Made by a program: the position numbers and the translations under genes. A stretch of 19,695 bases of DNA from an uncultured Thermoleophilia bacterium (GTDB lineage Bacteria > Actinomycetota > Thermoleophilia > UBA2241), in assembly GCA_963715985.1 (NCBI GenBank), contig CAVQSP010000006.1, forward strand, positions 1 to 19,695, read 5' to 3'. Each line of letters opens with the position of its first letter. The stretch's first letter is position 1. Below the pieces are notes generated by a model. It searched no databases. It was not told the origin of the DNA and saw nothing but the letters and a program-made list of their open reading frames with translations. Below, in pieces: positions 2,174 through 19,459 of this stretch.

Positions 2174-3046
2174 GCCGCGCCGGCCTGGTGGTGTACACCA
2201 GCCACGGCGTGCCCGCCCTCCGGGCGGTGCTCCGTGGCCTCCGGGAGACGGTGGACCGTCCCGCCGGCATCGTGGTGTTCGCCGACGACGCCTCCGACGT
2301 GGTGGCCACCTACCTCGTGCGCCAGTATCTGCGCGGCCGTATCGACGCCCTGCAGCTGGAGAGCGGCGATCGCCACGGCATGCACTGCGGCATTGACCGC
2401 GCTTTCCACATGGTCGACGGCGACTTCCTGGTGCGGGTGGACGACACCCTGGAGTTCCAGCCGGGATGGCTGGATCGCTCCATCGCGGCCCTCGAGGCCG
2501 ACCCGGCCATCGGCTGCCTGTCACTCTTGCCGCCGGACGACTACCACCGCGGGCGCGGCCGGCCGCGCACAGTGCACGTGGAGCCGGTCACGGTCGACCA
2601 TCTGGACATGCGCTGTTTCGTGACGCGCCGTGACTTGGTGCAGCGTCACGAGTGCCAGCTGCTGGGCGAGCGCGCCGGCGAATGCGCCTTCCAGCGCTAC
2701 CTGCGCGAGCGAGGGTCGCACGCTGGCCTATCTGCCCGGCGTGGTGACGGCACTCTCCGTGGCCGACGTGCCCTCAGCACAGGACGCCTGCGCCCACGAG
2801 GCCGACCTGCCGGCGCACCAGGGCGCCTCCGGCGCCATGCAGCGCCTGGAACAGGCCTACGACCTCGGTGACGACGTGCTGCTCACCTGCATGGCCTGTG
2901 GCAACAACGAGCTCGAGGTGCTGGCGGCGCGTATCCGCTTCTGCGAACGCCACCAGGTGGCCATCGGCTACTGGTACGAGCTGCGCTGTCCGGAGTGCAA
3001 CGAGCTCCACTACAAGGACGACTACCAGTTCAGCTGCCCTGGGTGA
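2170..3046 (+). CDS. Degenerate glycosyltransferase family 2 (GT-A fold) protein with C-terminal CxxC...CxxC Zn-ribbon; one frameshift near 2714
   Basis: GT2-like segments IVVFADDASD and GDFLVRVDDTLEFQPGWLDRSIAALEADPAIG. Removing one G of the run at 2713-2715 joins ORF 2170-2871 to ORF 2630-3046 (CMAC...CPEC), giving 291 aa. Confidence 0.7.
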
Positions 3047-5635: not shown

Positions 5636-5677
5636 TCGCCTCGCCGCGTTACACCGTCCGGCAGACAGGACCCCGAC

Positions 5678-5938
5678 ATGTGTCTCGCAGTACCCATGCG
5701 CATCACCGCCCTCGAGGGCACGCTGGCCACGATCGCCGCCGCCGGCCTCGAGCAGCGGTGCAGCGTGCTGCTCGTCCCCGAGGCGGGGATCGGCGACTAC
5801 GTGCTCGTCCACGCCGGCTACGCCATCAGCGTGCTCGACGAGGCGGATGCGCTGGAGACGTACGAGCTCCTGCGCGAGATCGGCGCGCTCGACGAGCTCA
5901 CCGGCGAGGATGAGGCCTCAGCCGATGGACCAGACTGA
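5678..5938 (+). CDS. hypC: Hydrogenase assembly chaperone HypC
   Basis: N-terminal MCLAVP and IGDYVLVHAGYAI motifs. Confidence 0.97.
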   Translation: MCLAVPMRITALEGTLATIAAAGLEQRCSVLLVPEAGIGDYVLVHAGYAISVLDEADALETYELLREIGALDELTGEDEASADGPD

Positions 5939-6990
5939 GACCCTCCGTCGCCTCGCGGCCGAGCTGCAGGCCGCCGCTCCCTCCGCTCTCACCGTGATGG
6001 AGGTGTGCGGGACACACACCATGGCCGTCGCCCGCTACGGGCTGCGCGAGCTTCTTCCGGCCGGTCTGAGTCTGATCTCGGGCCCGGGCTGTCCCGTGTG
6101 CGTCACGTGCCGTCTCCGATCTCGACCAGATGGTCGCGCTCGCCCGCCTGCCCCAGGTCACCGTGACGACGTTCGGTGACCTCATCCGCGTGCCCGCCTC
6201 GGCGACCACCCTTGCGGCGGAGCGCGCCGCGGGCGCCGACGTGCGCGTCGTCTACTCGGCGCGGGATGCCGTCGCCATCGCCGCCGCGGAGCCGGATCGT
6301 GAAGTCGTGTTCGCCGGCATCGGCTTCGAGACCACGGCGCCCACCGTCGCCGCCGCCCTTCTGGAGGCTCGTGCGAGCGGGGTCCACAACTTCTCCGTGC
6401 TCAGCATGCACAAGACCATGCCGCTGGCGCTGCGGGCGCTGCTCGATCTCGGTGAGACGCCTATCGGCGGGTTCCTGCTGCCCGGTCACGTCAGCGTGAT
6501 CACCGGCACCGCCTGCTACGAGTTCCTGGCCGGCGAGTATCGCGTGGCCGGCGTCGTGGCGGGCTTCGAGCCGGGGGACATCCTCCGGGCGCTGCTGAGG
6601 ATCGTGCGCCAGACTCGGCCGGCAGTGGAGATCGAGTACACCCGCGCGGTGCGCCCCGAGGGCAACGTCGTGGCGCAGCAGCTGCTCGAGCGGGTGTTCG
6701 AGCCGGCCGACGCCGACTGGCGCGGGCTGGGCGTGATCCCCGGGTCCGGGCTCGCGCTGAGCCGGGAGTTCGAAGACATGGACGCCGGGCGCCGCTTCGC
6801 CGTGGACGCCGGCTCGCCGCAGGAGCCGGCAGGCTGCCGCTGCGGCGAGGTCCTGCGCGGTGTGCTGGACCCGGCGGCCTGCGCGCTGTTCGGTACTCGC
6901 TGTACGCCGCAGGCGCCCGTGGGCGCCTGCATGGTCAGCAGCGAGGGTGCCTGCGCGGCTCGCTATCGCTTCCGCGGCATCGATGACTGA
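5925..6990 (+). CDS. hypD: Hydrogenase maturation protein HypD; one frameshift near 6108
   Basis: MEVCGTHT and GPGCPVCVT in the first frame; GFETT, PGHVS and CRCGEVLRG...CMVSSEGACAA in the second frame. Confidence 0.95.
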
Positions 6991-8053
6991 CGGCGGCCGC
7001 GTCCTCCTGGGTCACGGCAGTGGCGGAAGGCTGTACCGCGACCTCGTCCGGGACGTCTTCGTACGCGCCTTCGCCAATCCGGTGCTCGAGCGTCTGGACG
7101 ATGCGGCCGAGCTCGCCACCGGCGGCCGCATCGCCTTCACCACCGACAGCCACGTGGTGCAGCCGCTCACCTTCCCCGGCGGCGACATCGGCCGCCTTGC
7201 GGTGGCCGGCACCGTGAACGACCTGGCGACGGCGGCGGCGCGGCCGCTGGCGCTCGCCGCCGCCTTCATCATCGAGGAGGGGTTCGCTCTCGACAGCCTG
7301 AACGCCATCTGCGCCAGCATGGCGGACACCGCGCGCGAGGTCGGCGTGCCGATCGTCACCGGCGACACCAAGGTGGTGGAGCGCGGCGCCTGCGACGGCC
7401 TCTTCATCACCACGACCGGCGTGGGGGATGTCGTCGTGCGGCACCGGCTGGGAGCGACCGCGGTCCGCGAGGGAGACGCGGTCGTCCTGAGCGGCGGCAT
7501 CGGCGACCATGCCGTAGCGATACTGGCGGCGCGCGAGGAGTTCAGCTTCACCAGCGACGTGCGCAGCGACTGCGCCCCTCTGTGGGGCCTCGTCGAGGCG
7601 GCGGTGGCCGCAGCTCGCGACGCCGGGGCCTCGCCGCCGTCGGATGCGTCTGCAGCCGGCGGCCAGGTGGATGCCCCAGCCCTGCGGTTCCTTCGCGACC
7701 CGACGCGCGGCGGCCTCACCACCGTGCTTGCGGAGCTGGCCGAAGAGGCCGATCTCGGCGTCGAGATCGAGGAGGCGGCCGTCCCGGTCTCGCCGGCCGT
7801 GCGCTCGGTCTGCGAACTGCTCGGATACGATCCCTACTCGCTGGCGAACGAGGGCAAGATGGTCGCCGTGGTGGCGCCGGAGGCGGCCGATGCCGTGGTC
7901 TCGGCCATGCGGGGTACGCCGTACGGCGTCGAGGCGCGGCGCATCGGCTTCGTCACGGCCGCGCACCCCGGCCGCGTGGCCCTTCGCACGGCGTTCGGCA
8001 CGCGGCGCGTGCTCGACATGCCGGTGGGGGAGTTGCTGCCGCGCATCTGCTGA
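6983..8053 (+). CDS. hypE: Carbamoyl dehydratase HypE
   Basis: HGSGG, FTTDS, FPGGDIG.LAV.GTVND, GDTKVV, RDPTRGG, NEGK and diagnostic C-terminal LPRIC. Confidence 0.97.
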   Translation: MTDGGRVLLGHGSGGRLYRDLVRDVFVRAFANPVLERLDDAAELATGGRIAFTTDSHVVQPLTFPGGDIGRLAVAGTVNDLATAAARPLALAAAFIIEEGFALDSLNAICASMADTAREVGVPIVTGDTKVVERGACDGLFITTTGVGDVVVRHRLGATAVREGDAVVLSGGIGDHAVAILAAREEFSFTSDVRSDCAPLWGLVEAAVAAARDAGASPPSDASAAGGQVDAPALRFLRDPTRGGLTTVLAELAEEADLGVEIEEAAVPVSPAVRSVCELLGYDPYSLANEGKMVAVVAPEAADAVVSAMRGTPYGVEARRIGFVTAAHPGRVALRTAFGTRRVLDMPVGELLPRIC

Positions 8054-8230
8054 GGCGCCGGGCCGGTGGTTCGGCTCGTCGGCCGGCCTTCCGTCCCGGC
8101 CCTTGTCCGTCATCGCGCCCGGTGCTAGCGTCGAGCCCGGTCCGGCCCGGCCGCCGTGGCGGTCGAGGCGTGAGAGCAGGTACGGGGACGTGAACCGCGT
8201 CGCCGGCCGCCGGGGCGGGGAGGAGCTCAA

Positions 8231-9431
8231 GTGAAGGTCTGCGTGATGGGCGGCGCCGGCAGGATGGCGCTCGGCGCGGTGCGGGAGTTCGTCGAGCACG
8301 ATGAGGTCGAGGCGCTCGTCCTCGCCGACGCGGACGCCGCGGCGCTGCGCGGACGCGTCGAGTCGCTGGACTCGGCCAAGGTCTCGCAGGTGGTCGTGGA
8401 CGTCACCGATCGGGCAGGCATGGTCGCGGTGCTGGACGGCTGCGACGTGTGTCTCAACGCCACGTTGCCGTACTTCAACGAGGGCATCATGGAGGCGTGT
8501 CTGGCCGCCGGGTGTCACTACACCGACATGGGCGGCCTCTTCCACTGGGCGGCGAAGCAGCTGGCGATGAGCGACCGCTTCGCCGCCGCCGGCCTCACCG
8601 CCATCTGCGGTTCAGGCTCGGCTCCCGGCATCGTGAACGTGATGGCGCGGTATGCCGCGCTGCGTCTGGACACCGTCGAGTGGGTGCGCATCCGCGACGG
8701 CATCGTGAACTTCGCGCCGGCCTGGGCTCCCCTCGTACCGCCGTACTCCCTCGATACGCTGCTCAACGAGTTCATGATGGACCCGTGGATCTTCAAGGAC
8801 GGGGAGTGGCGGGAGATGACGCCGTTCTCCGGCGCCGAGGTGATCGACTTCCCCGAGCCGGTCGGCACGCAGACCTGCTTCTACACCATCCACTCGGAGC
8901 CGCAGACCATCCCCGTGTCGTTCCGCGACAAGGGCATCCGCGAGGTGAGCTTCCAGCTGTCGCTGCCCAAGGCGTTTGAGGACAAGCTGCGCTTCGTGGT
9001 CGAGCTGGGGCTCGCGGACAAGGATGCACTTCAGGTCGGCCAGACGTCCGTCGTGCCTCGTGACGTGCTGATGGCGCTGGTGGACCGCTCGCTGGCGGCG
9101 GCGGGGGAGGCGGCGGCGGCTTCCGGTCGCACACCGCCGCCGCCCGACGATCACAAGGTACTCCGCGTCGACGTGCGCGGCACCAAGGGACGGGCAGGTG
9201 CAGGACTACCGGCTCGAGAGCATCCAGCACCCGTACCCGGCGTGGGGGATGTCGTGCGGGGCGTTCACCGTCGGCTTCCTCTCGGCCGTCACGGTGCTGC
9301 TGCTGGGGCGGGGAGTCATCACCGAGCGCGGCGCCTTCGGCGGTGAGGCGTGCATCCCGCCGGAGGCCTACTTCGCGGAGTGCAATCGCCGCGACATCCA
9401 CGTGGACGTCGCGCAGACCTGCGCGTACTGA
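8231..9431 (+). CDS. Saccharopine dehydrogenase-like NAD(P)-dependent oxidoreductase (lysine 6-dehydrogenase/carboxynorspermidine synthase family); one frameshift near 9188
   Basis: Rossmann start MKVCVMGGAGRM, NATLPYFN...ACLAAGCHYTDMGG, GSGSAPGIVN, HSEP; C-terminus (GAFGGE) in ORF 9198-9431; GAGGAG RBS. Confidence 0.85.
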
Positions 9432-9492
9432 CGGCGTTCGCGGTGGGAGGGCAGGGCGTGGGCGCGCGCGTCGCAGGCCGGCGACCGGCGTG

Positions 9493-9774
9493 ATGGACGA
9501 CCGGGTCATCCTCTGCCTCTGCCGTGACGTCACGGCCGGCGACGTGCGTCGCGCCGTCGCCGCGGGCTACACCGACGTGGAGACGCTGAAGCGCTTCACC
9601 GGCGCCTTCACGGGTCCCTGCCAGGGCAAGAGCTGCGGCGAGGCCGTGCGGCGCGTGCTGGCCGAGCTCACCGGTCGCGAGCTCGCGGACGTTCCGGCGC
9701 CGCCGGTGCGGCCGCCCCTCTGGCCCGTGCGCCTGGGGACGCTGGCGGCCGCCGCGCCAGGTGCGGAGAAGTGA
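9493..9774 (+). CDS. BFD-like Cys-cluster ([2Fe-2S]-type) small protein
   Basis: ILCLCRDVT...LKRFTGAFTGPCQGKSC...RPP matches the CxC...GxCQGxxC domain of HcnB/opine/proline dehydrogenase alpha subunits. Start ATG 9493 or GTG 9490. Confidence 0.85.
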   Translation: MDDRVILCLCRDVTAGDVRRAVAAGYTDVETLKRFTGAFTGPCQGKSCGEAVRRVLAELTGRELADVPAPPVRPPLWPVRLGTLAAAAPGAEK

Positions 9775-11015
9775 CGGGGAGGCGCGGCCCTGCCGCGGGC
9801 GCCGCCACGCTGCGCCCGCATGGCAGGGTGATCCCCGGCGCCTGCCCGCGCGGGCTCCGGCGCGCCTACGACGTCGTCATCGTCGGCGCCGGTGTCCAGG
9901 GTCTGGCCCTGGCGTACGACCTGGCGCGGCGCGGCATCGGCCGCGTGGCGGTGCTCGACGCCGCCTATCCGGGCGCCGGGGCGAGCGGCCGCAACGGCGA
10001 GCTCATCCGCTCCGCCTTCGCGTCTCCCGAGTGGATCGGCCTCTTCGACGATAGCCTGCAGCGCTGGCGCACGCTCTCGGCGGAGCTCGACTTCAACGTG
10101 CTCTTCACGCCGTCGGGCTACCTGGTCCTTGCCGGAAGCGACGAGGAGCTCGCCGCCTTCCGGGGGCACGTCCGCCGGCAGCACGAGTCGGGGCTGCGCA
10201 CCCGGGTATTGGACGCCGCCGAGACGCGCGAGGCGGCGCCGGCCCTGGCCTCCGGCCTGGCCCGCGGCGCCATGTACCAGCCGGACGCCGGCTTCGCCCA
10301 CCACGACGCCGTGGTGTGGGCCTACGCCGCGGCTGCGTCGCGGCTCGGCGCCGAGATCCACCCGTACACCGAGGTGACCGGCGTGGAGACCTCGGCCGGC
10401 GCCGTGACCGGCGTGTCCACGCCACGCGGCCACGTGGCTGCACCGATCGTCGTTGATGCCGCCGGCGGCATGGCCGCGGACCTCGCCCGCCTCGCCGGCG
10501 TGGAGCTGCCGCTGCGGAGCTTCGTCCTGGAGGCGATGGTGACGGAGCCCCTGCGTCCGTTTCTGCGTCCCGCCGTCAGCTCTCCCGCGCACCTCGCCTA
10601 CGGCCACCAGACGACGCGCGGCGAGTTCGTCGGCGGCGCGGAGCCGCGGCGCGCGCGAGGGGGGCAGAGCTTGCGCGCCTCGCTCGCCGGAGCGCGTGAC
10701 ATGGCGGCGAAGTTCACGCAGATCTTCCCGGCGCTGGCCGGTGCTCGCATGATGCGCCAGTGGGCGGGTGTGGTGTCCCAGACCGAGGATGCCGCCCCGC
10801 TGCTTGGGCGGGTACCCGAGCTCGAGGGCCTGGTGCTCGACTGCGGCTGGGTCTACGGGTTCATGGGTGCGCCGGCCGGCGCGACTCTGCTGGGCGAGCT
10901 GATCGCCACCGGCCGGGCGCCGGCGCTGCTCACCCGTTTCGGGCTCGAGCGCCTGCGCCGCGGCGACCTCATCTTCGAGCCCTCCCTGGTCGTGAGCACG
11001 GGTGAGGACACGTGA
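9771..11015 (+). CDS. FAD-dependent oxidoreductase, DAO family (sarcosine oxidase beta/proline dehydrogenase beta-like)
   Basis: YDVVIVGAGVQGLALAY, GASGRNGELIR, GYLVLA, RQWAG, D..PLLG, CGW.YGFMGAPAG; GTGA overlaps at both ends. Confidence 0.9.
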   Translation: MTGRRGPAAGAATLRPHGRVIPGACPRGLRRAYDVVIVGAGVQGLALAYDLARRGIGRVAVLDAAYPGAGASGRNGELIRSAFASPEWIGLFDDSLQRWRTLSAELDFNVLFTPSGYLVLAGSDEELAAFRGHVRRQHESGLRTRVLDAAETREAAPALASGLARGAMYQPDAGFAHHDAVVWAYAAAASRLGAEIHPYTEVTGVETSAGAVTGVSTPRGHVAAPIVVDAAGGMAADLARLAGVELPLRSFVLEAMVTEPLRPFLRPAVSSPAHLAYGHQTTRGEFVGGAEPRRARGGQSLRASLAGARDMAAKFTQIFPALAGARMMRQWAGVVSQTEDAAPLLGRVPELEGLVLDCGWVYGFMGAPAGATLLGELIATGRAPALLTRFGLERLRRGDLIFEPSLVVSTGEDT

Positions 11016-12484
11016 AGACCGGGCGGGATCCGGGGGCCGGCCGGCCGGCCCGCGATGAGGGGTCCGGCGCCCTGCGCATACGGGAGGCCGGAGCGGAGCG
11101 GCGGCCCGTCCGTTTCGTCTTCGACGGCCGCCCCATCGTTGCGCTCGAGGGCGACACCGTCGCGGCCGCGCTCGTCGCGCACGGCGTGCGCGTGTTCGGG
11201 CGCAGCTCCAAGTATCACCGCCCCCGCGGCCTGCGCTGCGGCAACGGCACCTGCTCCTGCTGCGCCATGCGCGTGGACGGGCTCCCCGGGGTGCGCACCT
11301 GCGTCACGCCCGTGCGGGAGGGCATGGTCGTGGAGCGGGAGCACGCGTGGCCGTCGGCGGAGTTCGACCTGATGCGCGGCGGCGAGCTGGCCGCGCCGCT
11401 GCTGCACGCGGGCTTCTACTACCGCTGGTTCCGCCGCTCTCCGCGCCTCTGGAGCACCGCCGAGCGCCTCCTGGCCCGTGCCGCCGGCCAGGGTGACCTG
11501 CCGAGCGCCGAGGCGGCGCGGCGGCTGGCCGGGGCGCGTCTGCGCCGGCGCGCCGGTGTCGGCGTGCTGGTGGTCGGCGGCGGGCCGGCCGGTCTCAGCG
11601 CTGCTTTGGCGGCCGCGGAGGGCGGAGCGGAGGTGGTGCTCGCCGAGAGGCATCCCGCTCTGGGCGGCGCGGCGGCCCCCACGGGCTCCGGCCGAGATCG
11701 CGCCGAGGTCCTCGAGCGCGCCGTGCGGCAGCATCCGCGCGTGGAGGTGCTCGCCCCGGCCGAGGTGGCGGGCTGGTACGACGAGGGCGTGGTCGCCCTG
11801 ACCGACGGCGACGACCTCGTGCTGATGGAGCCGGCGGCCGTGGTGCTGGCCGCCGGCGCGCACGAGCTGCTCCTGCCGTTCCGCGGCGGCGACCTGCCCG
11901 GCGTCATCGCCGCCGGCGCCGCCCGCAGGCTGCTTCGCGGCGGCGTGCGGCCGGGGCGCGCCGTCGTGCTCGTCACCGACCGCAGCGACGGGTACGCCCT
12001 GGCGGCCGAGCTCACGGCGCACGGTGTGGCGGTGGCGGCCGTCGCCGATCGCCGGCCGGCGCGCCAGGTGGCGGCGGACGAGCGCCTGGGCCTCGAGTCG
12101 TTGGGCATCCCCCTTCACACGGGCCTGCGCGACATGATCGGGCATGGCAGGACGTCTGTGGGCGCCGTCTCGCTCGTACTCCGGGACGACGACCGCGCAC
12201 GGCCGCAGACCGCGCGCATCGCCTGCGACGTCGTGTGCGTGGCGGCCGGCGGGCGTCCAGCAGCGGAGCTCGCCCGGCAGGCGCTTGCCGAGGGGCACTT
12301 CGCGCTCGCGCCGGTGACCCTCGACGGCTCCGCTGCCTCCACGGTGCTCGCTGCGCGCGGCCCCCGCCTCTTCCTCGCCGGCGCCGCGAACGGCTGCGGG
12401 TCGGCGGCGGAGGCGGCCGCGGACGGCGAACACGCCGGTCGCGCGGCCGCCTCGTGCTCGCCGACGGAACCTCGGCGGCCCTAG
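11012..12484 (+). CDS. [2Fe-2S] domain plus pyridine nucleotide-disulfide oxidoreductase-type subunit (sarcosine oxidase alpha N-terminal/proline dehydrogenase alpha-like)
   Basis: GDTVAAAL...FGRSSKYHRPRGLRCGNGTCSCC...RTC, GFYY, VLVVGGGPAGLSAA, VVLAAGAHE..LPF.GGDLPGV; no folate-binding (GcvT) C-terminus. Confidence 0.88.
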   Translation: MKTGRDPGAGRPARDEGSGALRIREAGAERRPVRFVFDGRPIVALEGDTVAAALVAHGVRVFGRSSKYHRPRGLRCGNGTCSCCAMRVDGLPGVRTCVTPVREGMVVEREHAWPSAEFDLMRGGELAAPLLHAGFYYRWFRRSPRLWSTAERLLARAAGQGDLPSAEAARRLAGARLRRRAGVGVLVVGGGPAGLSAALAAAEGGAEVVLAERHPALGGAAAPTGSGRDRAEVLERAVRQHPRVEVLAPAEVAGWYDEGVVALTDGDDLVLMEPAAVVLAAGAHELLLPFRGGDLPGVIAAGAARRLLRGGVRPGRAVVLVTDRSDGYALAAELTAHGVAVAAVADRRPARQVAADERLGLESLGIPLHTGLRDMIGHGRTSVGAVSLVLRDDDRARPQTARIACDVVCVAAGGRPAAELARQALAEGHFALAPVTLDGSAASTVLAARGPRLFLAGAANGCGSAAEAAADGEHAGRAAASCSPTEPRRP

Positions 12485-12581
12485 CGGCTCAGAGGAGACC
12501 CGGCCGAGCGCTCGAGGCGGGAGTCGCCGTGAGCAGGCGAGCGGTGGCGCCGCCCGCGAGGCCGGAGGGGCTCCCGGCCCG

Positions 12582-12977
12582 TCAGCTCGGGCAGAGAGCC
12601 TCGACCTTCGCCAGAAGCAGCTCGGGGACGACCGGCTTCTCCACGAACTCCTGCACGGGGAGCCATGCTTCGTCCAGGTCCTTGTTCGTGAACTTGCCGA
12701 CGTAGATGCCGGCCTCGTTGACGGCGGTGAGCATGAGGCGCGGCAGGGCCGTTGTGCGTTCGTCGGCCTGAAGGTCACGCGCCATCTTGAACCCGGCGCC
12801 CGTGTCCTCGGGGAGCATGACGTCGATGATCACCAGGTCGGCGCCGAACTCGACGACGTTGTCGACGACGTCCTTGTCGTCGTTCTGGGACCCGACCACG
12901 TAGCCGTTGCTCTCGAGGACCATCGAGACCGACTCCACGATGCTCGGTTCATCGTCGATGACGTAGACTCGCTTCAC
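12582..12977 (-). CDS. Single-domain response regulator receiver (CheY-like)
   Basis: VYVIDDE, LVIIDVMLP, MLTA and FVEKP all intact; GGAGG RBS before GTG. Confidence 0.93.
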   Translation of the reverse strand: MKRVYVIDDEPSIVESVSMVLESNGYVVGSQNDDKDVVDNVVEFGADLVIIDVMLPEDTGAGFKMARDLQADERTTALPRLMLTAVNEAGIYVGKFTNKDLDEAWLPVQEFVEKPVVPELLLAKVEALCPS

Positions 12978-12990
12978 GACATACCTCCAT

Positions 12991-14133
12991 TTGAATGTCG
13001 GGCTCGGACACTCTCTCCGGCCCAGCTATCATAGCCGCCGTCGAACAGGGACAGGACAGGATGGAACAGGACAGGAGGGACAGGACACGTACATCATCGC
13101 CCTGGTGGGCGCAGGAGATCAGGGCCTCGCGATCCTCAGGGCGCTCCTCGGCGTACCCGGGGTCGAGGTCCGCTACGTGTTCGACTCGGACCCTGCGGCC
13201 CCGGGGGTGGCACTCGCCCGCGAGAACGGCATCCGCTGCCGGACCGACGGTCGCTTCGACGAACTCACCGGCGACGGCGAGGTCGACCTCGTCCTCGAGA
13301 CCGGCGGCGACGCGGACGTGCTCGCGGTGCTCGAGGCGAGCACACACCCGGACAGCTGCCTGATCGGCGCCGCCGGCACGCGCTTCATCGCTCGCCTGCT
13401 CGCCGAGATCGACGCCGTCGGCGAGCGTGCGAACGTCGAGAAGGCCCGCTACCTGAGGCAGGCCTCGCATCAGGTCAAGTCGCCGCTGTCCTCGATCCAG
13501 AGCTACGTCAACGTCATCCTCGGCGGCTACACCGGGGAGATCCCCGAGCGCACCCGCGACATCGTCGAGAAGATCCACTCCCGCTGCGACGCGGCGCTCG
13601 GCGCCCTCGCCAAGCGGCGCATGCTGGCCGACCTGCGCTGCGTCGACCGCGACGGCCTCGAGATGAGCACCGTCCGCCTCGGCGAGGTGATCGACGAGGC
13701 GGTGGCGCGCCACGCCGAGGCGGCCGCCGGGCGCGACATCGAGATCCGGGTCCTGCCGCACGGCGGACCCGACCTGGTGGACTGCGACCCCCCGCAGATG
13801 GTCGCGCTTCTCTCCGAGCTCGTCGAGAACGCGGTGATCTACTCCCACGACGGCGGCCTGGTGGAGATCGCCCTCACGTCGCCGTCGGACGGCCGGCTCA
13901 CGCTCTCCATCCGCGACCACGGCATCGGTATCCCGGAGCGCTGCCTCCCGCGGATCTTCGACGAGGACTACAGGGCCGACCTCGCGGTCAAACACCACCA
14001 GGACGGCGCCGGCCTGGGCTTGGCCATCGCCCGCGAGATCGCCGGCCTCCACCGGTTCGGGCTCGCGGCCGAGAGCGAGGAGGGGCACGGCAGCGTGTTC
14101 ACCGTGACCGTCCCGGAGGCGCCGGCGGCGTGA
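12991..14133 (+). CDS. Soluble sensor histidine kinase with N-terminal Rossmann-like (NAD-binding) domain; true start uncertain
   Basis: IALVGAGDQG...VRYVFD N-domain; H-box ASHQVKSPL, N-box ELVENAVIYS, G1 DHGIGIP, G2 GAGLGLAIA; no transmembrane stretch. Confidence 0.9.
   Translation: MNVGLGHSLRPSYHSRRRTGTGQDGTGQEGQDTYIIALVGAGDQGLAILRALLGVPGVEVRYVFDSDPAAPGVALARENGIRCRTDGRFDELTGDGEVDLVLETGGDADVLAVLEASTHPDSCLIGAAGTRFIARLLAEIDAVGERANVEKARYLRQASHQVKSPLSSIQSYVNVILGGYTGEIPERTRDIVEKIHSRCDAALGALAKRRMLADLRCVDRDGLEMSTVRLGEVIDEAVARHAEAAAGRDIEIRVLPHGGPDLVDCDPPQMVALLSELVENAVIYSHDGGLVEIALTSPSDGRLTLSIRDHGIGIPERCLPRIFDEDYRADLAVKHHQDGAGLGLAIAREIAGLHRFGLAAESEEGHGSVFTVTVPEAPAA
13045..13087 (+). repeat. Cluster of six ACAGG pentamers at the 5' end of the kinase gene
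   Basis: ACAGG at 13045, 13051, 13056, 13066, 13071 and 13080. Confidence 0.8.
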
Positions 14134-14207
14134 GGGCAGGGGCGTCGGAGGACCGCTCGATTCCCGCCGCAGGCCCGGCGTGGAGCGGCGCGCCGAAGGT
14201 TCGCCGC

Positions 14208-14663
14208 TCACAGCCCCGCCAGGTGTTCGATCGCCGCAGCGGCATACACCGGCACGCGCTCGCCCAGACACTCGGACAACTCGATCCCGCTCTCCATGTC
14301 GTACGGCTCGATGCCCATGATGGCGACGGGCGGGATCGGGTAGCCGGCGTCACGCGCCAGCTCCAGCACCTTGAGCACGTCGCCCTCGTGAGTCGTCAGG
14401 CCGCTCAGCTCCTTCTGCGTCTCCACCTCGTCCGGTGAGAAGAAGCGGTAGTCACCGGGGGGCAGACCGAGCTGCGCCGCGTCGATCACCAGCACCGCCT
14501 CGGTCTCGGCGTTCAGGTACGCCACCAGCCTGAGCGCGTCGGTGGAGAGGTCAACGGCCTCGAAGTCGCGGTCGAGGCCGTTGACCGTGACATGCTCCAC
14601 CACGCGCGGGCCGACGGCGTCGTCGCCGGCCATGTAGTTGCCTACACCGACCAGATAGCGCAC
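14208..14663 (-). CDS. Hydrogenase maturation endopeptidase (HyaD/HycI family)
   Basis: LVGVGNYMAGDDAVG, VLVIDAA, TTHE, IMGIEP; directly follows the large subunit. Start GTG 14663, or CTG 14672. Confidence 0.93.
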   Translation of the reverse strand: MRYLVGVGNYMAGDDAVGPRVVEHVTVNGLDRDFEAVDLSTDALRLVAYLNAETEAVLVIDAAQLGLPPGDYRFFSPDEVETQKELSGLTTHEGDVLKVLELARDAGYPIPPVAIMGIEPYDMESGIELSECLGERVPVYAAAAIEHLAGL

Positions 14664-14668
14664 CCTGC

Positions 14669-15985
14669 TCAGCGCACGAACTTGACGGCCAGGTAGTGCG
14701 TCGAGCACGAGATGCAGGGGTCGTAGGAGCGCACGAGCATCTCGAGCGCCAGTTCCATCTCCTTCTCGCTCTTGTCCTGCGCGACCAGTTCAGGCACGAG
14801 CTTCTCGAAGTCGTGCTGGATGTTGTTGTGGTTCTGGTTGGTCGGGATGATGCAGTTGCCGCCGAGGCACATGCCGTCGTCGTCGTAGCCGTACTCGTGG
14901 AAGAGGATGCCGCGCGGCACCTCGGTGGCGCCCGCGCCGGAGCCGAACTTGGTGGGCTCGACGAGCGGCTCGAGCTCGACCCCGGCGGCGATGAGCTCGT
15001 CCAGCAGGGCGACCGACTCGTAGACGTCCGAGGCGATCTCGACGACCTGCGCGACCGTGTTCATGTACGGGTTGGTGCAGATCGGCTGGATGCCGAGCAC
15101 CTCCGCCACCTTCTTCGCCTCGGGATGGAGCCTGTCGTAGTTGTTGTTGAAGCGCGCCAGGGCGCCCGCCGCGTAGGAGTCCAGCTTGTTCCTGGTGTAC
15201 TTGGCCGTGGACTGCGGCACGACGAACTCGTTGGTCACCTGCTTGTAGTCGGCCACCGGGTAGCGCTGCTTCGTGCCGTCGGGGAGCACCGACTGGATGT
15301 CGCCGTCGTACAGGCCATAGTCCTTGTCGTTGGACAGGGCGATGTACTCGGTGGGCCGGTCGAAGGCCGGCACGTTGGGCGCCAGCGCGAGGACCGTGGC
15401 GACCGTGGCCTCGAGCTCGGGCACGGCGGCCAGAAGTCGCTCCCGCAGCTCCTTGAGCTCCTTGGTGGTCGGCACAGCCGCCATGCCGCCGGGGACGACG
15501 CTCATCGGGTGGGTGGTGCGCCCGCCGATGAGCGAGCCCCACTCGTGCGCCAGCCTCTTGAGGCGCAGGGCACGCGCCACCACGTCGGCGTGCGTCGCGA
15601 CCAGCGGGAACACCGACGGCGCGCCGAGGAAGTCGGGGGCCGCGAGGAAGTTCACGTGCAGGACGTGCGAGTCGAAGTTCTCGGCGTGCTTGAGCAGCTC
15701 GCGGAGCTTCCAGCTCTGCTCGCTGACCTCGATGCCGAGCGCCTCCTCGGTGGCCTTCACCGAGGCGAGCGTGTGGCCCACGGAGCAGATGCCGCAGATG
15801 CGGCTCGTGATGCGGGCGACCTCGGAGTAGTGGCGCCCGCGGACCATGGACTCGAAGAAGCGCGGGGCCTCCGGCACCTGCCACTCGCACTTCTCGACCA
15901 CGCCGTCGGCGATGTTGACGACGATGTTGCCGTGGCCCTCGACGCGGGTCAGGTGGTCGACGCGGATACGAGCACTCGTGGTCAT
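14669..15985 (-). CDS. hydA: Group 3b [NiFe]-hydrogenase large (alpha) subunit
   Basis: TRVEGHG, L1 SRICGICSVGH, EVPRGILFH, L2 YDPCISCSTH plus cleavable tail YLAVKFVR; 438 aa; operon context. Confidence 0.95.
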   Translation of the reverse strand: MTTSARIRVDHLTRVEGHGNIVVNIADGVVEKCEWQVPEAPRFFESMVRGRHYSEVARITSRICGICSVGHTLASVKATEEALGIEVSEQSWKLRELLKHAENFDSHVLHVNFLAAPDFLGAPSVFPLVATHADVVARALRLKRLAHEWGSLIGGRTTHPMSVVPGGMAAVPTTKELKELRERLLAAVPELEATVATVLALAPNVPAFDRPTEYIALSNDKDYGLYDGDIQSVLPDGTKQRYPVADYKQVTNEFVVPQSTAKYTRNKLDSYAAGALARFNNNYDRLHPEAKKVAEVLGIQPICTNPYMNTVAQVVEIASDVYESVALLDELIAAGVELEPLVEPTKFGSGAGATEVPRGILFHEYGYDDDGMCLGGNCIIPTNQNHNNIQHDFEKLVPELVAQDKSEKEMELALEMLVRSYDPCISCSTHYLAVKFVR

Positions 15986-16735
15986 GAGGTGGCCTCCAGG
16001 TCAATGGCAGTGAACATGAGCGCCTTCTCGGCCGCCCGCTTCTGCGAGAACCCGGCGCGGTGCACCAGCACCCGCTCGAGGGCGGGCACGTTGGGGTGGT
16101 CGACGAACCCGCGGCACGCCTCGCAGGGGACGCCGTAGGCGGGACACGGCGCCGAGCATCCGGCGCGCGCGACCATGCCCATGCAGTGGTCGTCTTCGTC
16201 GTAGCGGCAGACGGTCTCGCGGCGCTTGCACTCCACACAGACCGGATAGTTGGGGATCACCGGCTCCTTGCCGTGCAGCAGGTGAGCGACGATCTGCAGG
16301 ACTTCGTACTTGTTCACGGGGCAGCCGTAGGCCGAGTAGTCGACCTTGATGGCCGCCGAGATGGGCTGCGCCTTCTGCGAGTCGAGGTGGGGCTGATCGG
16401 CGTCGGCGCCGTACACGAACTGCTTGTAGTCGGACTGGTGGTTCTTCAGCGCGTTGATGCCGGCGCCGGCCGCGCACTGGCCGTAGGCGATGACGATGCG
16501 CGGCGCGCTCGCGGATGCTCTCGAGCCGCGCGCGGTCGGCCTCGCGCGTGAAGCTGCCCTCGACGAAGGCGATGTCGATGGGCTCCGTCGTCTTCTCCGA
16601 CATCGCCTCGCGGAACTCGACGACGTCGACGTGGTTGATGAGCTCGAGGAACGCCGCGTCACCGTAGTTGGTGAACTCGATCTGGCAGCCCTCGCAGCAG
16701 GTGAAATCGAAGAACGCGACCTTCGGCTTGCCCAT
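15982..16735 (-). CDS. hydD: Group 3b [NiFe]-hydrogenase small (delta) subunit; one frameshift near 16503
   Basis: KVAFFDFTCCEGCQ and FVEGS in the first frame; YGQCA, YGCP, VCVECK and CMG...GCSAPCP...PCEACRG in the second; no Tat leader. Confidence 0.92.
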
Positions 16736-17576
16736 CAGAACGCCTCCTCGAGACCCTGGACGTCGGCGAACGAGAACACCGGGCCGTCGACACATACGTA
16801 CTTGTCATTGATCTGGCAGTGGCCGCACTTGCCCACGCCGCACTTCATGCGGCGCTCGAGGTCGACGAAGACGTTCTCGCGGGGGATGCCGATCATGTCG
16901 AGCTCGCGGATCACGAACCGGTAGAAGATCGGCGGCCCGCAGATGACCGCGCGCGTGTGCGGCGACAGCTCGACCTTGGGGAACAGCGTGGTGATGACGC
17001 CGACGTTGCCCGCCCAGCTCGGGTCGCCCTGTCGACGGTCTCGAAGAACTCGACGTCGTGGGTCGTCCGCCACTTCTCGAGGTCGTCCGTGAACAGCTGC
17101 AGCTTGGGCTCGCGCGCCCCGTAGAACAGGATGAAGCGCTTGAACTCGTCGCGCCGGTCGAGGATGTACTGGATCAGGCTGCGCGTGGGGCACAGGCCGA
17201 TGCCGCCCGCCACGATGAGCACGTCCTGCCCGCGGAGCTTGGTGAGGTCGAAGCCGTTCCCCAGCGGGCCGCGAACGTAGACCGACTGGCCCTTGTCCAG
17301 CTTGGTGACCGCGCCGGAGACGCGCCCGACGGAGCGCACCACCAGGTCGAAGGTGTGCTTGCGCGTCGGCGAGCTGGCGAAGCCGATGGGGATCTCGCCG
17401 TAGCCGAAGAGCGAGAGCTCGACGATCTGGCCGGGCTCGTACTCCATGGGCTGCCCGTCCGCCATCTGCAGCGTGAAGTGCGTCTCCGTCGGAGTCACCT
17501 GCACGCTGCGGACGATGGTGGCCTCACGAGGCAGGAAGATGTTCTCGACTTCTGTCCAGTGGCACTGGTGATTCAT
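16735..17576 (-). CDS. hydG: Group 3b hydrogenase gamma subunit (FAD/NAD(P)-binding, [2Fe-2S]); one frameshift near 17028
   Basis: EPGQ, GYGEIPI, VRGPLGNGF, VAGGIG, FYGAR, then ICGPP and ERRMKCGVGKCGHC...CVDGPVF. Confidence 0.92.
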
Positions 17577-17586
17577 CTGTCGCTCC

Positions 17587-18615
17587 TCACGAGGCCATGA
17601 TCTGATCGATGATGCGCACCGGGTCGGCGATGTCGGCGGTGCAGCCGGCCGAGCAGCGGCCGCAGCCGACGCACGCCGGCCCGCCCAGCTTCTCGTTCAG
17701 GTACGTCGCCTTGCGCATCATGCGGTGGCGGAAGCGCGAGGCCCGCTCCTCACGGAAGTTCTCGCAGGCGCCCTCGCCGAGCGAGCACTTGGCGAAGTCC
17801 TCGGTGAGGCAGCCGTCCCAGTAGCGCGTGCGCTGCCCCGACGTCTGGTCGACGTTCCACGTGTCCTGCACGTCGAAGCAGTAGCAGGTCGGGCAGACCG
17901 TGTTGCACGTGCCGCAGGAGAAGCAGTCGGCAGCCATGGTCGCCCACATCTCTTCGTTGCCGAAGGCGGCGCGCACCTTGGCGGCGATGTCCTCGGTGCT
18001 GTGCTCCAGCTTCTCGGGGCACTGCTCGAGCGCCGCGGCGTTCACGTCTGCCGCCTCCTTGATCTGCGCCTCGGAGGCCGGATGGAAGGCGCCGTACTCC
18101 AGCAACGCCTCGCCGCGCTCGGTCAGCGGCTCGAACACGTAGCCGTAGCCGAGCGCCGTCATGAAGGCGTCGTGGCCCTTGGGCTGCACGTCCGCACCGA
18201 CCGTGGCGAAGAACGCACGCTTGGAGACGTTCTGCATGTTCGAGGCGACGATGGTGGTGGTCTGGCGATGCGCCATGTAGTTGACGTCGTAGTTGCGCTC
18301 CGAGAAGAGGAGGTCGGTCTGGTCGATCGCCTTGACGTCGTAGAAGTGGACGCCGAGGAGGACCTTCTCGGTCGGCTCCAGCGGGGCTCTGAACCCGTTT
18401 CCGTCGAACTGGACCAGGTCCTGCGCGGGCGGGAAGAAGAGCTTCTTCGGCGGCAGGATGGAGACGTCGTAGTCGAGCCGCAGCTCGTCCGGCGTCTCCA
18501 GGCGCTCGAAGGCAAAGCGCGAGCGTTTGGCCACCGGTCCGTAGACCGGGCCCGCCTCGATCATGGCGGTCACAAACGCGGCAAAGTCGTCACTCCTGAT
18601 GAATGAGGCAGTCAT
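17587..18615 (-). CDS. hydB: Group 3b hydrogenase beta subunit (2x[4Fe-4S])
   Basis: ILPPKKLFFP, CFSCGTCNTVCPTCYCF, RYWDGC, RFRHR, CVGCGRCSAGC; first gene of the beta-gamma-delta-alpha order. Confidence 0.92.
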   Translation of the reverse strand: MTASFIRSDDFAAFVTAMIEAGPVYGPVAKRSRFAFERLETPDELRLDYDVSILPPKKLFFPPAQDLVQFDGNGFRAPLEPTEKVLLGVHFYDVKAIDQTDLLFSERNYDVNYMAHRQTTTIVASNMQNVSKRAFFATVGADVQPKGHDAFMTALGYGYVFEPLTERGEALLEYGAFHPASEAQIKEAADVNAAALEQCPEKLEHSTEDIAAKVRAAFGNEEMWATMAADCFSCGTCNTVCPTCYCFDVQDTWNVDQTSGQRTRYWDGCLTEDFAKCSLGEGACENFREERASRFRHRMMRKATYLNEKLGGPACVGCGRCSAGCTADIADPVRIIDQIMAS

Positions 18616-18870
18616 CGGACCTCGCTAGGTTGAGCACGTCTCTCTCCTGCAGCGGGCGAGCGGCCGGTGGGGACGGTCTGGCCCGTTGCGGTGAGAACGT
18701 CGGGAATCGGCGCACGAAGACGCATTCCGTGCTGCGCTGGCGTCGTGAGCGGCGGTGTCAGGTCGGCGGCATGCATGTGCTCCACAGCGAAATGCGCTCG
18801 CAGCGTGCAAGCTTGCCAGGTTCCTCCTTTCGGGCCCGCTGGTACAGGATGTGCAGGATAGGCTACCTGA

Positions 18871-18892
18871 TTGCGAAAGCCGTCACAATATA
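18871..18892 (-). promoter_or_regulatory. Rex/CRP-like operator adjoining a putative -10 box upstream of the hydrogenase operon
   Basis: Minus strand TATA-TTGTGACGGCTTTCGCAA: one mismatch to TGTGA-N6-TCACA and two to TTGTGAA-N4-TTCACAA; -10-like TATATT at 18892-18887. Confidence 0.55.
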
Positions 18893-19027
18893 GGAGCGCA
18901 CCTGATTTGGGGGGGCCTGCGTCCTGGTGTATGCGCACGTGGTCGGGCGACTGCACAGGACCCGGGGGAAGGGCGGCAGGCGCGCGGCGCCACGGAGGCG
19001 GGGATCCTGCGCGAAGGGGGAGGAGTC

Positions 19028-19103
19028 TGGAGCCCGGTCGCGGATTCGAACCGCGGACCCCCTCCTTACCATGGAGGTGCTCTGCCGACTGAGCTAACCG
19101 GGC
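19028..19103 (-). tRNA. tRNA-Thr(GGT)
   Basis: 76-nt cloverleaf GCCCGGT...CCTCC-AT-GGT-AA-GGAGG...GTTCGAATC...ACCGGGC-T-CCA. Confidence 0.97.
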
Positions 19104-19107
19104 CTGC

Positions 19108-19191
19108 TGGTGGGGGAGCCAGGATTTGAACCTGGGTAGGCTGCGCCAACGGATTTACAGTCCGCCCCCTTAACCACTCGGGCACTCCCCC
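19108..19191 (-). tRNA. tRNA-Tyr(GTA)
   Basis: GGGGGAGTGCCCGAGTGG...GCGGA-CT-GTA-AA-TCCGT, long variable arm, GTTCAAATC, ends ACCA. Confidence 0.96.
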
Positions 19192-19204
19192 GGGAGCGCG
19201 CAAG

Positions 19205-19233
19205 AGGCTACAGGAAAGAGGTGAGGCTTTCAA
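19205..19233 (-). promoter_or_regulatory. Putative promoter of the tRNA-Tyr/Thr pair
   Basis: Minus strand TTGAAA-17 nt-TAGCCT just upstream of tRNA-Tyr. Confidence 0.6.
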
Positions 19234-19340
19234 CCGACTGAAGAGGCCTTCGTGGAGTCCTCTGAAGAAGGCGTGACAGGCGGAGCGGACGGTGCGCGCC
19301 GGTCGCGGCGGAGGCCCGCCGGACCGCCTTGGGTGCAGGA

Positions 19341-19369
19341 TTGAGCCCCCTCTGCGCCTGTGATACCTT
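19341..19369 (+). promoter_or_regulatory. Putative promoter of tRNA-Met
   Basis: TTGAGC-17 nt-TACCTT with an extended -10 TG. Confidence 0.55.
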
Positions 19370-19382
19370 ATGCATCCGCCGT

Positions 19383-19459
19383 GGCGGCGTAGCTCAGCTG
19401 GTCAGAGCAGCGGAATCATAATCCGCGTGTCGTAGGTTCGAGTCCTACCGCCGCTACCA
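19383..19459 (+). tRNA. tRNA-Met(CAT), elongator type
   Basis: 77-nt cloverleaf GGCGGCG...GCGGA-AT-CAT-AA-TCCGC...GTTCGAG...CGCCGCT-A-CCA. The 1:72 bases are paired and there is no triple G-C anticodon stem, so it is not the initiator. Confidence 0.93.

Follow-up and report, generated by a model that had tools for sequence, protein, structure and literature searches.

The question raised by this locus is what a soluble histidine kinase encoded beside a hydrogenase may be sensing. The stretch of DNA that we analysed, hereafter the window, comprises positions 1 to 19,695 of contig CAVQSP010000006.1 from an uncultured Thermoleophilia bacterium (assembly GCA_963715985.1), and the kinase is encoded on its forward strand by an open reading frame (ORF) at 12991–14133, which gives 380 aa from its TTG codon and about 352 aa if the start is an ATG near 13076. 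An earlier note, made from the sequence alone, had proposed that the only sensor of this kinase is a Rossmann domain reading pyridine nucleotides; the ORF lies where that note had placed it, and the three peptide strings that it quoted (IALVGAGDQG, VRYVFD and VDLVLETGG) are all found. Our answer, which we hold with moderate confidence, is that the protein is a soluble dimeric kinase of the HisKA type, that a Rossmann domain binding nicotinamide adenine dinucleotide, NAD(H), is its input, and that it tunes the neighbouring group 3b hydrogenase via a response regulator consisting of a receiver only. In our reading, this is a two-component kinase with a new and widespread Rossmann-type input domain, and an unexpected lead is that the maturation of the hydrogenase may be the regulated step.

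The sensor domain occupies residues 33–125 (13087–13365, forward strand) and is a Rossmann dinucleotide-binding domain of five strands, truncated after the last of them. In an AlphaFold2 model based on an alignment of 143 sequences, the N-terminal 120 residues have a mean predicted local distance difference test (pLDDT) score of 94.3, and the elements follow in the order strand 1 (34–39), helix A, strand 2 (58–64), helix B, strand 3, a short helix, strand 4 (100–103), a helix, strand 5 (123–125) and a long helix. The glycine loop GAGDQG is found at residues 40–45, and Asp65 ends strand 2. The proposal of a Rossmann fold joined directly to a kinase core, for which the earlier note had suggested structure prediction as a check, is borne out by this model and by a Foldseek search of the PDB, in which 26 matches were obtained at E ≤ 0.001 and, among the matches listed, all were NAD(P)-binding Rossmann domains. 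A Pfam scan at E ≤ 0.01 gave no match within residues 1–150 and neither a PAS nor a GAF domain in the kinase, and the hydropathy profile (19-residue window) reached its maximum of 1.64 at residues 35–53. Because this maximum is Rossmann strand 1 with its glycine loop, the kinase has no membrane segment. A membrane-bound or PAS/GAF sensor is thus ruled out by the scan and the profile, which agree with the earlier reading on this point.

The nearest relatives of the domain are only partly those first named. The likeness to Gfo/Idh/MocA-type dehydrogenases, which had been read from the sequence, stands in second place: the best Foldseek match was 4lrt_B (E 2.1e-5, template modelling score 0.66, 30% identity), followed by 1nvm (DmpF), 7z3s and 4jn6, and the Gfo/Idh/MocA enzymes solved with NAD (6nor, 6jw7 and 8qc6) formed the next tier. 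The first place is taken by the NAD-binding domain of the DmpF/MhpF-type acylating aldehyde dehydrogenases. A phmmer search of the PDB with the domain sequence found 4lrs_B at E 4.1e-5, and a 38-row profile of the domain matched five acylating dehydrogenases at E values of 1.4e-11, 4e-11, 1.3e-10, 4.2e-8 and 4.2e-8, compared with 4e-4 for Gfo/Idh/MocA, 5.1e-4 and 6.1e-3 for the Rex structures 5zz5 and 3keo, and 0.0021 for 4g65. The alignment to the DmpF-type enzymes takes in residues ~5–100 alone. The domain lacks the catalytic and dimerisation parts of these enzymes, and the relatives of the kinase do not conserve Cys123; it is therefore not an enzyme and is read as a binding module. The best scores of an ESM Atlas search (0.75–0.76) were below the meaningful level, and its matches are leads only.

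The positions conserved across the family are those expected to hold a dinucleotide. Our signature alignment comprised 143 domains, that of the window and 142 of the 144 library representatives described below; P0047, which matches through the linker only, and P0103, a 55-aa fragment, were left out. G40 is present in 139 of 139 sequences, G42 in 135 and G45 in 128 of 139; the residue past strand 2, D65, is Asp in 141 of 142 and Glu in the remaining one; A70, P71 and G72 are kept in 124, 123 and 126 of 142, A76 in 140 of 142 and G106 in 130 of 137. Read from this alignment, the conserved positions are the pyrophosphate loop, the ligand of the adenosine ribose and a loop common to the DmpF family. 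An acidic residue ending strand 2 is the textbook mark of a preference for NAD(H) over NADP(H), and the nearly invariant Asp65 therefore favours NAD(H). This motif pattern, the homology, and genomic contexts that have reductant disposal in common make NAD(H) the likely ligand sensed by the domain.

The coupling of the domain to the kinase core appears to be direct. In a full-length AlphaFold2 model (pLDDT 90.9, 48-row alignment), a single unbroken helix runs from strand 5 through His160 (residues 127–177), forming a signalling helix continuous with the first helix of the dimerisation and histidine phosphotransfer (DHp) domain, and is followed by DHp helix 2 (186–217) and a normal ATP-binding domain. 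The helical part, assigned from the model and the HisKA match, spans 13369–13641 and the HATPase_c domain 13666–14121, both on the forward strand; the latter has the conserved residues N280, D309/G311/G313, F323 and G339/G341/G343, and its N, G1, F and G2 boxes are intact, with residues that are invariant or nearly so. Pfam assigned HATPase_c to residues 266–377 (E 4.6e-22, above the cut-off) and HisKA to residues 151–200 (E 1.7e-4, at 22 bits below the cut-off of 26.9 bits), and residues 140–375 align to WalK/PhoR-type NCBIfam models at E 1e-33 to 1e-31, far below the equivalog cut-offs. By these matches, the kinase core is of the generic HisKA type. When two copies of residues 31–158 (the Rossmann domain and linker) were modelled with NAD riding along, the interface score ipSAE was 0.77, compared with 0.00 for the best of three controls; of proteins with solved structures, 20 of 30 pairs and 1 of 23 single chains reach this mark, into which the ligand does not enter. 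At least 97% of contacts were common to the runs, the partner pLDDT was at least 90, and the interface consists of the linker helix and domain residues 1, 4, 25–26 and 69–70 (alignment numbering) packed against the helix of the partner. Because kinase linkers resemble solved coiled coils, this pass may reflect mere likeness to solved structures.

The phospho-acceptor His160 (codon CAT, 13468–13470) lies in the H-box ASHQVKSPL and is followed by Gln161 (codon CAG, 13471–13473). The Gln at His+1, to which the earlier note had drawn attention, is a family trait: the H and the Q occur without exception in the 48 aligned relatives, including a distant THQLKAP clade at 33–41% identity and a Verrucomicrobiota protein. 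The residue at His+4, Ser in the window kinase, varies between Ser, Thr and Ala among related clades. The N-domain occurs at a kinase-like length in 47 clusters, 44 of which have HisKA/HATPase Pfam matches, and the usual SHELRTP H-box was found in 3 of 25 kinase representatives bearing the Rossmann domain. The database names of these relatives are generic or wrong, 'HAMP domain-containing sensor histidine kinase' being one instance. In two genomes of the same genus (G074 and G276, loci L100 and L101), frames of 343–363 aa match the N-domain more weakly (E 2.4e-7 and 2.8e-6) and may encode paralogous Rossmann kinases.

The domain also occurs as an input module on very different outputs. A phmmer search with the 120-residue domain against 1.84 billion representative sequences returned 144 proteins at E ≤ 1e-3, 16 of them at E ≤ 1e-10. 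Pfam scans of 143 domain proteins detected MCPsignal in 30, HisKA in 23, HATPase_c in 21, PAS in 12, a receiver in 11, GAF in 10 and Sigma54_activat in 7; the domain itself drew weak matches to GFO_IDH_MocA (50), DapB_N (38), NAD_binding_3 (27) and CoA_binding (12), and no dedicated Pfam family for it emerged among these 143 sequences. The architectures include Rossmann-MCP (~270–290 aa), Rossmann-SpoIIE-HATPase_c_2, Rossmann-GAF-HisKA-HATPase-REC, Rossmann-PAS(n), Rossmann-sigma54, REC-Rossmann-HisKA_3 and Rossmann-PAS-HK-REC (HK, histidine kinase), and the domain also heads a PP2C phosphatase. The search of architectures suggested by the earlier note has thus placed the domain at the head of chemoreceptors, sigma-54 activators and a phosphatase as well as kinases. 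In a sample drawn from the phylum of a Thermoclostridium genome (Clostridia-type), 120 of 401 genomes had a domain match at E ≤ 1e-10, and ten examples scanned comprised six Rossmann-MCPsignal and four Rossmann-PAS-Sigma54-HTH_8 proteins.

The sigma-54 activators point to the kind of signal involved. We picked 26 loci (L155–L180) by frame length (~564–626 aa) and not by context, and 25 of these hold an activator. Nine of the 25 stand directly upstream of sucC, sucD, methylmalonyl-CoA mutase and carboxyltransferase genes (one, L177, also has fumAB), and seven more precede a class I fumarase and/or a fumarate-reductase flavoprotein, which brings the count to 16 of 25. Near a further five lies a DAO-type oxidoreductase, an SSF symporter or an aldehyde:ferredoxin oxidoreductase, and nothing recognisable lies near the remaining four; the reference genes were identified by Pfam. 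The genes past the activators are electron-sink routes of fermentation, and, judging from this arrangement, the succinate/propionate pathway probably has dedicated regulators in the Rossmann-PAS-sigma54 proteins. In the portion of a census of Clostridiales activators considered here (PMC6615313), the input domains given are PAS, GAF, PTS-HPr, PrpR_N, ACT, CBS, Fer4, Fe_hyd_lg_C, FeS, V4R and RR, with no Rossmann domain among them. Our search of the full-text literature, whose coverage does not extend to subscription journals, found no description of kinases, chemoreceptors or sigma-54 activators with an input domain of the Rossmann type, in keeping with the earlier note, which did not recognise direct nucleotide sensing by a kinase as a characterised system. 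The domain apparently represents a widespread and unnamed family of input domains.

The kinase adjoins an NAD(P)-linked hydrogenase, as had been claimed, whose genes occupy 14208–18615 on the reverse strand. They encode a HycI-type maturation endopeptidase (14208–14708), which is convergent with the kinase across a 74-bp gap, the large subunit HyhL (14669–15985), with RICGICSVGH near its N-terminus, the small subunit HyhS (15988–16795), the subunit HyhG (16738–17603), which binds flavin adenine dinucleotide (FAD) and NAD(P), and the Fe-S subunit HyhB (17587–18615; Pfam and NCBIfam). In the window, the coding sequences of HyhS and HyhG are each broken into two frames; both are intact in an orthologue and on C19, a sister contig of the same assembly. 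The best NCBIfam models for this enzyme are ShyA/B/C/D and HydA/B/D/G, below their equivalog cut-offs, and Pfam agrees; the four subunits (AsrA-like Fe-S, FAD/NAD(P), small and large) and the CxxC motifs in HyhL identify it as a [NiFe]-hydrogenase of group 3b, the NAD(P)-coupled, sulfhydrogenase type. Among 301 genomes of the class of the window, 21 match the N-domain at E ≤ 1e-5, and the ten strong matches (E ≤ 4.6e-28, the genome of the window excluded) all fall within its family. In nine of these ten orthologous loci, the divergent receiver and kinase genes are followed by hycI, hyhL, hyhS, hyhG and hyhB in the same arrangement, at kinase identities of 54–88%; the comparison of neighbourhoods that had been suggested therefore shows the pair to be syntenic with the hydrogenase. 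In the tenth locus (L109, genome G044), the pair adjoins MsrAB and an ABC transporter, with no hydrogenase. L116 has a truncated kinase past hycI at a contig end, and L099 is a 2.5-kb contig with only the kinase and receiver genes.

The gene divergent from the kinase, as the earlier note had seen, encodes a receiver-only response regulator of 131 aa (12582–12977, reverse strand), in which D8, D9, D52, T84 and K114 are present and which bears the conserved insert NEAGIYVGKF..WLPVQEFVEKP; it has neither an output nor a DNA-binding domain. Such a receiver (131–136 aa) accompanies the kinase in 12 of 12 loci and keeps the acidic pair, D52, T/S84, K114, the insert and the signature WLPVxxFVEKPV. 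The intergenic region between the two genes (12978–13075) contains the near-palindrome AGCTATCATAGCC, which is conserved in an alignment of several orthologous loci and may be an operator or promoter element. Contigs of a relative in the metatranscriptome run X15 span the receiver/kinase junction, but these are contigs and not reads and may derive from DNA, hence they are no proof of transcription. No public sequencing run holds more than 0.38 of the words of the window.

The relatives of the receiver suggest what it may act upon. Four longer proteins match the receiver of the window at E ≤ 1e-10, including P0196, a 311-aa HycI-receiver fusion; its receiver is 38% identical to that of the window over 97% of the regulator and has the LPVxxFVEKPV signature in common with it. 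PF01750 occurs together with PF00072 in 33 of the 105 relatives of P0196. Moreover, P0258 (381 aa) is a Rex protein (PF06971 plus a CoA_binding-type Rossmann domain) with a C-terminal receiver 39% identical to that of the window. By Rosetta-stone logic, we infer that HycI, or else Rex, is the most likely target of the receiver, and the lack of a DNA-binding domain in a receiver whose subfamily is fused to HycI makes a protein-protein output likelier than direct control of transcription. HyhL ends in DPCISCSTH plus eight residues, so that a tail is present for HycI to cut. The HycI-receiver fusion clusters (P0196–P0225 and P0229–P0231), in which the receiver is C-terminal, are named just 'hydrogenase maturation protease' in the databases.

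The same receiver subfamily is found beside the same enzyme in another phylum. In an Anaerolineae-type class, 45 of 301 genomes match HycI-REC at E ≤ 1e-30. The loci were picked by this match, so that only the adjacency of hyh counts as a finding: hyh genes directly precede hycI-REC in 10 of 10 loci, and hyhB-G-S-L is complete in nine, the other (L198) being cut at a contig end within hyhL. HycI and the receiver are fused in L189 (10506–11411) and L190 (8813–9790) and are separate adjoining genes in L197 and L193. A 6TM_PilS-GAF-HisKA-HATPase kinase lies downstream in four of six scanned loci (L191, L192, L196 and L197); the downstream kinase is GAF-HisKA-HATPase without a 6TM match in L193 and HisKA-HATPase only in L198. 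According to Pfam, HyhB is fused at its N-terminus to REC-HisKA-HATPase_c in two proteins of 746 aa (L189:14631–16871 and L190:3582–5822), which, as predicted from these domains, are hybrid histidine kinases forming part of a group 3b hydrogenase subunit. To judge by its layout, which is that of these two, a 743-aa ORF in L195 (17443–19674) may encode a further fusion of this kind. Six-frame scans at E ≤ 0.01 found no Rossmann sensor in the ten Anaerolineae hyh loci, and its presence there is rejected.

The transcription of the hydrogenase genes probably has its own regulator. A Rex/CRP-type palindrome, TTGCGAAAGCCGTCACAA (18871–18888), lies 256 bp upstream of hyhB and has one mismatch to TTGTGAnnnnnnTCACAA, which we take to be the Rex consensus and in which the CRP/FNR core TGTGA-N6-TCACA is embedded as well. 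A scan of 14 related loci (260 kb) gave 11 sites at no more than two mismatches, ten of them 54–395 bp before hyhB. Of the 13 loci that reach the start of hyhB, 10 have the palindrome before this gene (the window, L003, L105, L106, L108 and L111–L115); the loci are kin and not independent, and the ten include both loci that have no pair (L114 and L115). The whole window contains four Rex-like sites at three mismatches or fewer compared with 1.71 expected, a number reached in 19 of 200 shuffles and not significant, so that what counts for the window palindrome is just its position before hyhB and its single mismatch. Three Rex-type PF06971 matches above the Pfam cut-off occur in the genome, and the idea that the kinase substitutes for a missing Rex was therefore rejected. 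We likewise rejected the idea that the ORF at 18612–18956 encodes a small conserved product belonging to the hyh operon, because it falls in no family, its composition is odd and it overlies the promoter region in which the palindrome is found. By these signs, hyh transcription is probably handled by a one-component factor, which fits a non-transcriptional role of the kinase pair; with a receiver lacking a DNA-binding domain, a palindrome before hyhB and Rex in the genome, it is unlikely that the pair simply switches the transcription of the hydrogenase.

The state of the window contig bears on the start of the kinase. The TTG at 12991 spares just 13 bp to the divergent receiver gene. At the place matching 13076 of the window, C19 reads GGATGGGACAG, that is, ATG GGA CAG (MGQDT...), and the orthologues also begin with ATG GGA CAG there; the T of that ATG is missing in the window (13075–13077). 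Contigs of two other DNA runs have one extra base at the start site (two of the two that cover it), and most relatives of the kinase are 352–374 aa long with the N-terminus MG(Q/R/H)DT. Therefore, the true start is probably the ATG near 13076, with a product of about 352 aa in which Rossmann strand 1 begins five residues past the Met; with a one-base deletion in the ATG, the TTG would be an accident of frame and the longer ORF an artefact. C19 carries a second collinear copy of the locus (L003), 96.7–97.9% identical to 5686–19459 of the window, and two strains have probably been binned together in this assembly (7.29% contamination). The domains of HypF are spread over three overlapping frames at 2995–5913. 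Between the hyp genes and the receiver gene lies an opine/sarcosine-oxidase-like cluster (8231–12484), consisting of a saccharopine-dehydrogenase-like gene followed by BFD-like [2Fe-2S], DAO and SoxA-like (2Fe-2S and pyridine-nucleotide-disulphide) genes, which is not conserved in the orthologous loci, and three tRNA genes (Thr-GGT, Tyr-GTA and Met-CAT; 19028–19459) are found just past the hyh promoter region.

We propose the following course of events. The sensor would be a five-strand Rossmann domain of about 95 residues that descended from a DmpF/MhpF-type NAD-binding domain and kept the dinucleotide-binding signature. The occupancy of this domain by NAD(H), or the redox form of the bound nucleotide, would shift the coiled-coil linker, and this shift would set the balance of kinase and phosphatase activities toward the divergently encoded receiver-only regulator. 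In this way, the pair would tune an electron sink, the NAD(P)-linked group 3b hydrogenase next to it, through a protein-protein effect on HycI or possibly Rex more likely than through direct control of transcription. The presence of the family on chemoreceptors and activators would fit a general signal that reductant is piling up. A fuller scheme, which we put forward tentatively and regard as doubtful when taken whole, places the maturation of the hydrogenase by HycI under two-component control: the Rossmann kinase would read NADH/NAD+ and phosphorylate the receiver, the receiver, bound to HycI or (in Anaerolineae) fused to it, would gate the cleavage of the HyhL tail and thereby fix the amount of active hydrogenase in the cell, the Rex/CRP-type site would serve transcription, and the module would be a general NADH sensor employed also in redox taxis and at electron sinks under sigma-54 control.

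Several observations weigh against our preferred reading, and some of them favour other ligands or none. According to Willett and Kirby (PMC3510030), an acidic residue at His+1 is required for the kinase activity, not the phosphatase activity, of four HisKA kinases, and Thr or Asn at His+4 is needed for phosphatase activity. By this rule, the Gln at His+1 of the window kinase stands in the place of a residue required for autokinase activity; the phospho-acceptor His and the ATP-binding boxes are present. The window contig itself has lost the start ATG and has frameshifts in hyhS, hyhG and hypF, which may represent assembly error or gene decay. Within the sensor, the window kinase has Gly at position 105, where 116 of 137 family members have Thr; the domain ends past strand 5, which leaves the nicotinamide half of the classical site incomplete; and fold and motif conservation by themselves would fix neither which ligand is bound nor whether any is. 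In DmpF, NAD+ and CoA reportedly occupy one site (Lei et al. 2008, cited in PMC4762007). By analogy with these closest enzymes, coenzyme A (CoA) is a live rival, and the domain may sense CoA or an acyl-CoA (acetyl-, succinyl- or propionyl-), or the balance between the two, instead of NAD(H). The 12 family members that match CoA_binding and the nine activators preceding genes of a CoA-ester pathway (sucCD, methylmalonyl-CoA mutase and carboxyltransferase) are consistent with this, but GxGxxG with an Asp past strand 2 in all but one sequence is the classical NAD(H) signature, and the contexts (hydrogenase, fumarate reduction and chemoreceptors) have reductant disposal and not one CoA ester in common. 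The strand-2 Asp of Rossmann folds normally bonds free ribose hydroxyls, and CoA bears a 3'-phosphate. We consider a CoA sensor unlikely. That the domain has ceased to bind any ligand, and serves for dimerisation, as a scaffold or as a dock onto a protein such as the diaphorase subunit of the hydrogenase, from which the signal would then come, is in our view very unlikely. Such a role would suit its truncation past strand 5, the dimer model, in which domain residues contact the linker helix of the partner, and the Anaerolineae fusions of kinase and receiver domains to HyhB and HycI, which amount to protein-level coupling to the enzyme. However, the near-invariant positions across very different outputs are exactly those that bind nucleotides, which a scaffold would hardly keep, and the domain is also found in proteins and genomes with no hydrogenase nearby.

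The link of the pair to the hydrogenase is open to a different objection. The receiver has no output domain, so that its route to the enzyme is one we infer. Among 13 genomes of the family (HyhL identity at least 75%), L114 and L115 have hyh-hycI with no pair nearby. Conversely, the pair occurs with no hydrogenase at L109 and L005; the genomes in which it stands apart from hyh are G044 and a Verrucomicrobiota genome, and in the latter it (36% and 48% identity) lies beside a class I fumarase. Because of these loci with the pair alone and with hyh-hycI alone, the association is strong within the family and not obligatory. Furthermore, with Rex in the genome and the palindrome before hyhB in most loci, a classical NADH sensor may already control transcription. 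The pair could then be a general redox or metabolic module that hitch-hikes beside hyh by lineage, with targets elsewhere and the hydrogenase under Rex or a CRP-type factor alone; the convergent orientation of the kinase and the hyh operon, which are not co-transcribed, would suit this, as would the palindrome that L114 and L115 retain. Against this, the synteny in nine of ten loci holds down to 54–66% kinase identity, the receiver subfamily is independently linked with hycI/hyh in another phylum, and one Rex-receiver fusion of the same subfamily exists. We therefore judge mere hitch-hiking distinctly unlikely, and retain the NAD(H)-reading kinase that tunes the hydrogenase as our preferred interpretation.

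If this interpretation is correct, the Rossmann dinucleotide module would be a new class of cytoplasmic sensor, portable across kinases, chemoreceptors, sigma-54 activators and a phosphatase and present in about a third of one Clostridia-type genome sample. It would offer a handle on how fermenters turn on hydrogen evolution, fumarate reduction and propionate formation, on what many 'orphan' soluble chemoreceptors sense, and on whether phosphorylation regulates hydrogenase maturation. Since the domain is small and is fused to its outputs by a single helix, it is also a possible building block for NADH biosensors.

Compared with known systems, the domain is closest in sequence and structure to the DmpF/MhpF/BphJ-type acylating acetaldehyde dehydrogenases (1nvm, 4lrs/4lrt, 4jn6 and 7z3s), with which it shares the motif D-P-x-(A/S)-x-G-L-x-x-A past strand 2. 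These enzymes possess a catalytic Cys region and a dimerisation domain, whereas the kinase keeps just the first ~100 residues; with no dimerisation domain and no conserved Cys123, we do not count it among them. Nor is it a member of the Gfo/Idh/MocA enzymes, since the window domain has no Pfam GFO_IDH_MocA match and no C-terminal oxidoreductase domain; where those enzymes have a C-terminal α/β domain for substrate binding and oligomerisation, the transmitter core of the kinase follows directly. The KTN/RCK (TrkA-N) domains are likewise Rossmann folds used as regulatory ligand sensors, and 4g65 gave the weak profile match mentioned above, but they gate K+ transporters and form rings, and their likeness to the kinase domain is confined to the glycine loop. 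The Anaerolineae HycI-receiver system has a receiver of the same subfamily, its genes lie past hyhBGSL, and the kinase encoded next has a related DHp domain. It differs in that HycI and the receiver are fused or neighbours and in that its kinase is of the 6TM-GAF membrane type, in contrast to the Rossmann kinase of the window.

Among regulators, Rex uses a Rossmann domain to read NADH/NAD+ and controls fermentative and hydrogenase genes. The profile match of the kinase domain to Rex is far weaker than that to the DmpF-type enzymes, and Rex is a one-component winged-helix DNA binder, whereas the Rossmann domain of the kinase has no DNA-binding part and drives a transmitter through a coiled coil. 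As the kinase has no PF06971 winged-helix match and Rex genes lie elsewhere in the genome, it is not a Rex. HoxJ and HupT are, like the window kinase, histidine kinases of a hydrogenase locus, but they employ PAS domains, a separate H2-sensing regulatory hydrogenase of group 2b (HoxBC/HupUV) and a DNA-binding regulator; the window kinase has no PAS domain and a receiver-only partner, the quantity sensed would be a nucleotide and not H2, and the sole hydrogenase in the window is the four-subunit group 3b enzyme, so that it does not belong with them either. To our knowledge, the reading of NADH/NAD+ by bacteria is known mainly through Rex, and redox sensing by kinases and chemoreceptors is ascribed to PAS/GAF cofactors or quinones. 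Redox sensors of the latter kind include KinA, whose PAS-A domain employs NAD+, NifL, MmoS and Aer with FAD-PAS, and DosS and DosT with haem-GAF. The window kinase resembles all of these in having a cytoplasmic cofactor-binding input joined by a helix to the transmitter; they use PAS or GAF folds and never a Rossmann fold, and it is the Rossmann fold that the window kinase would bring to this position.

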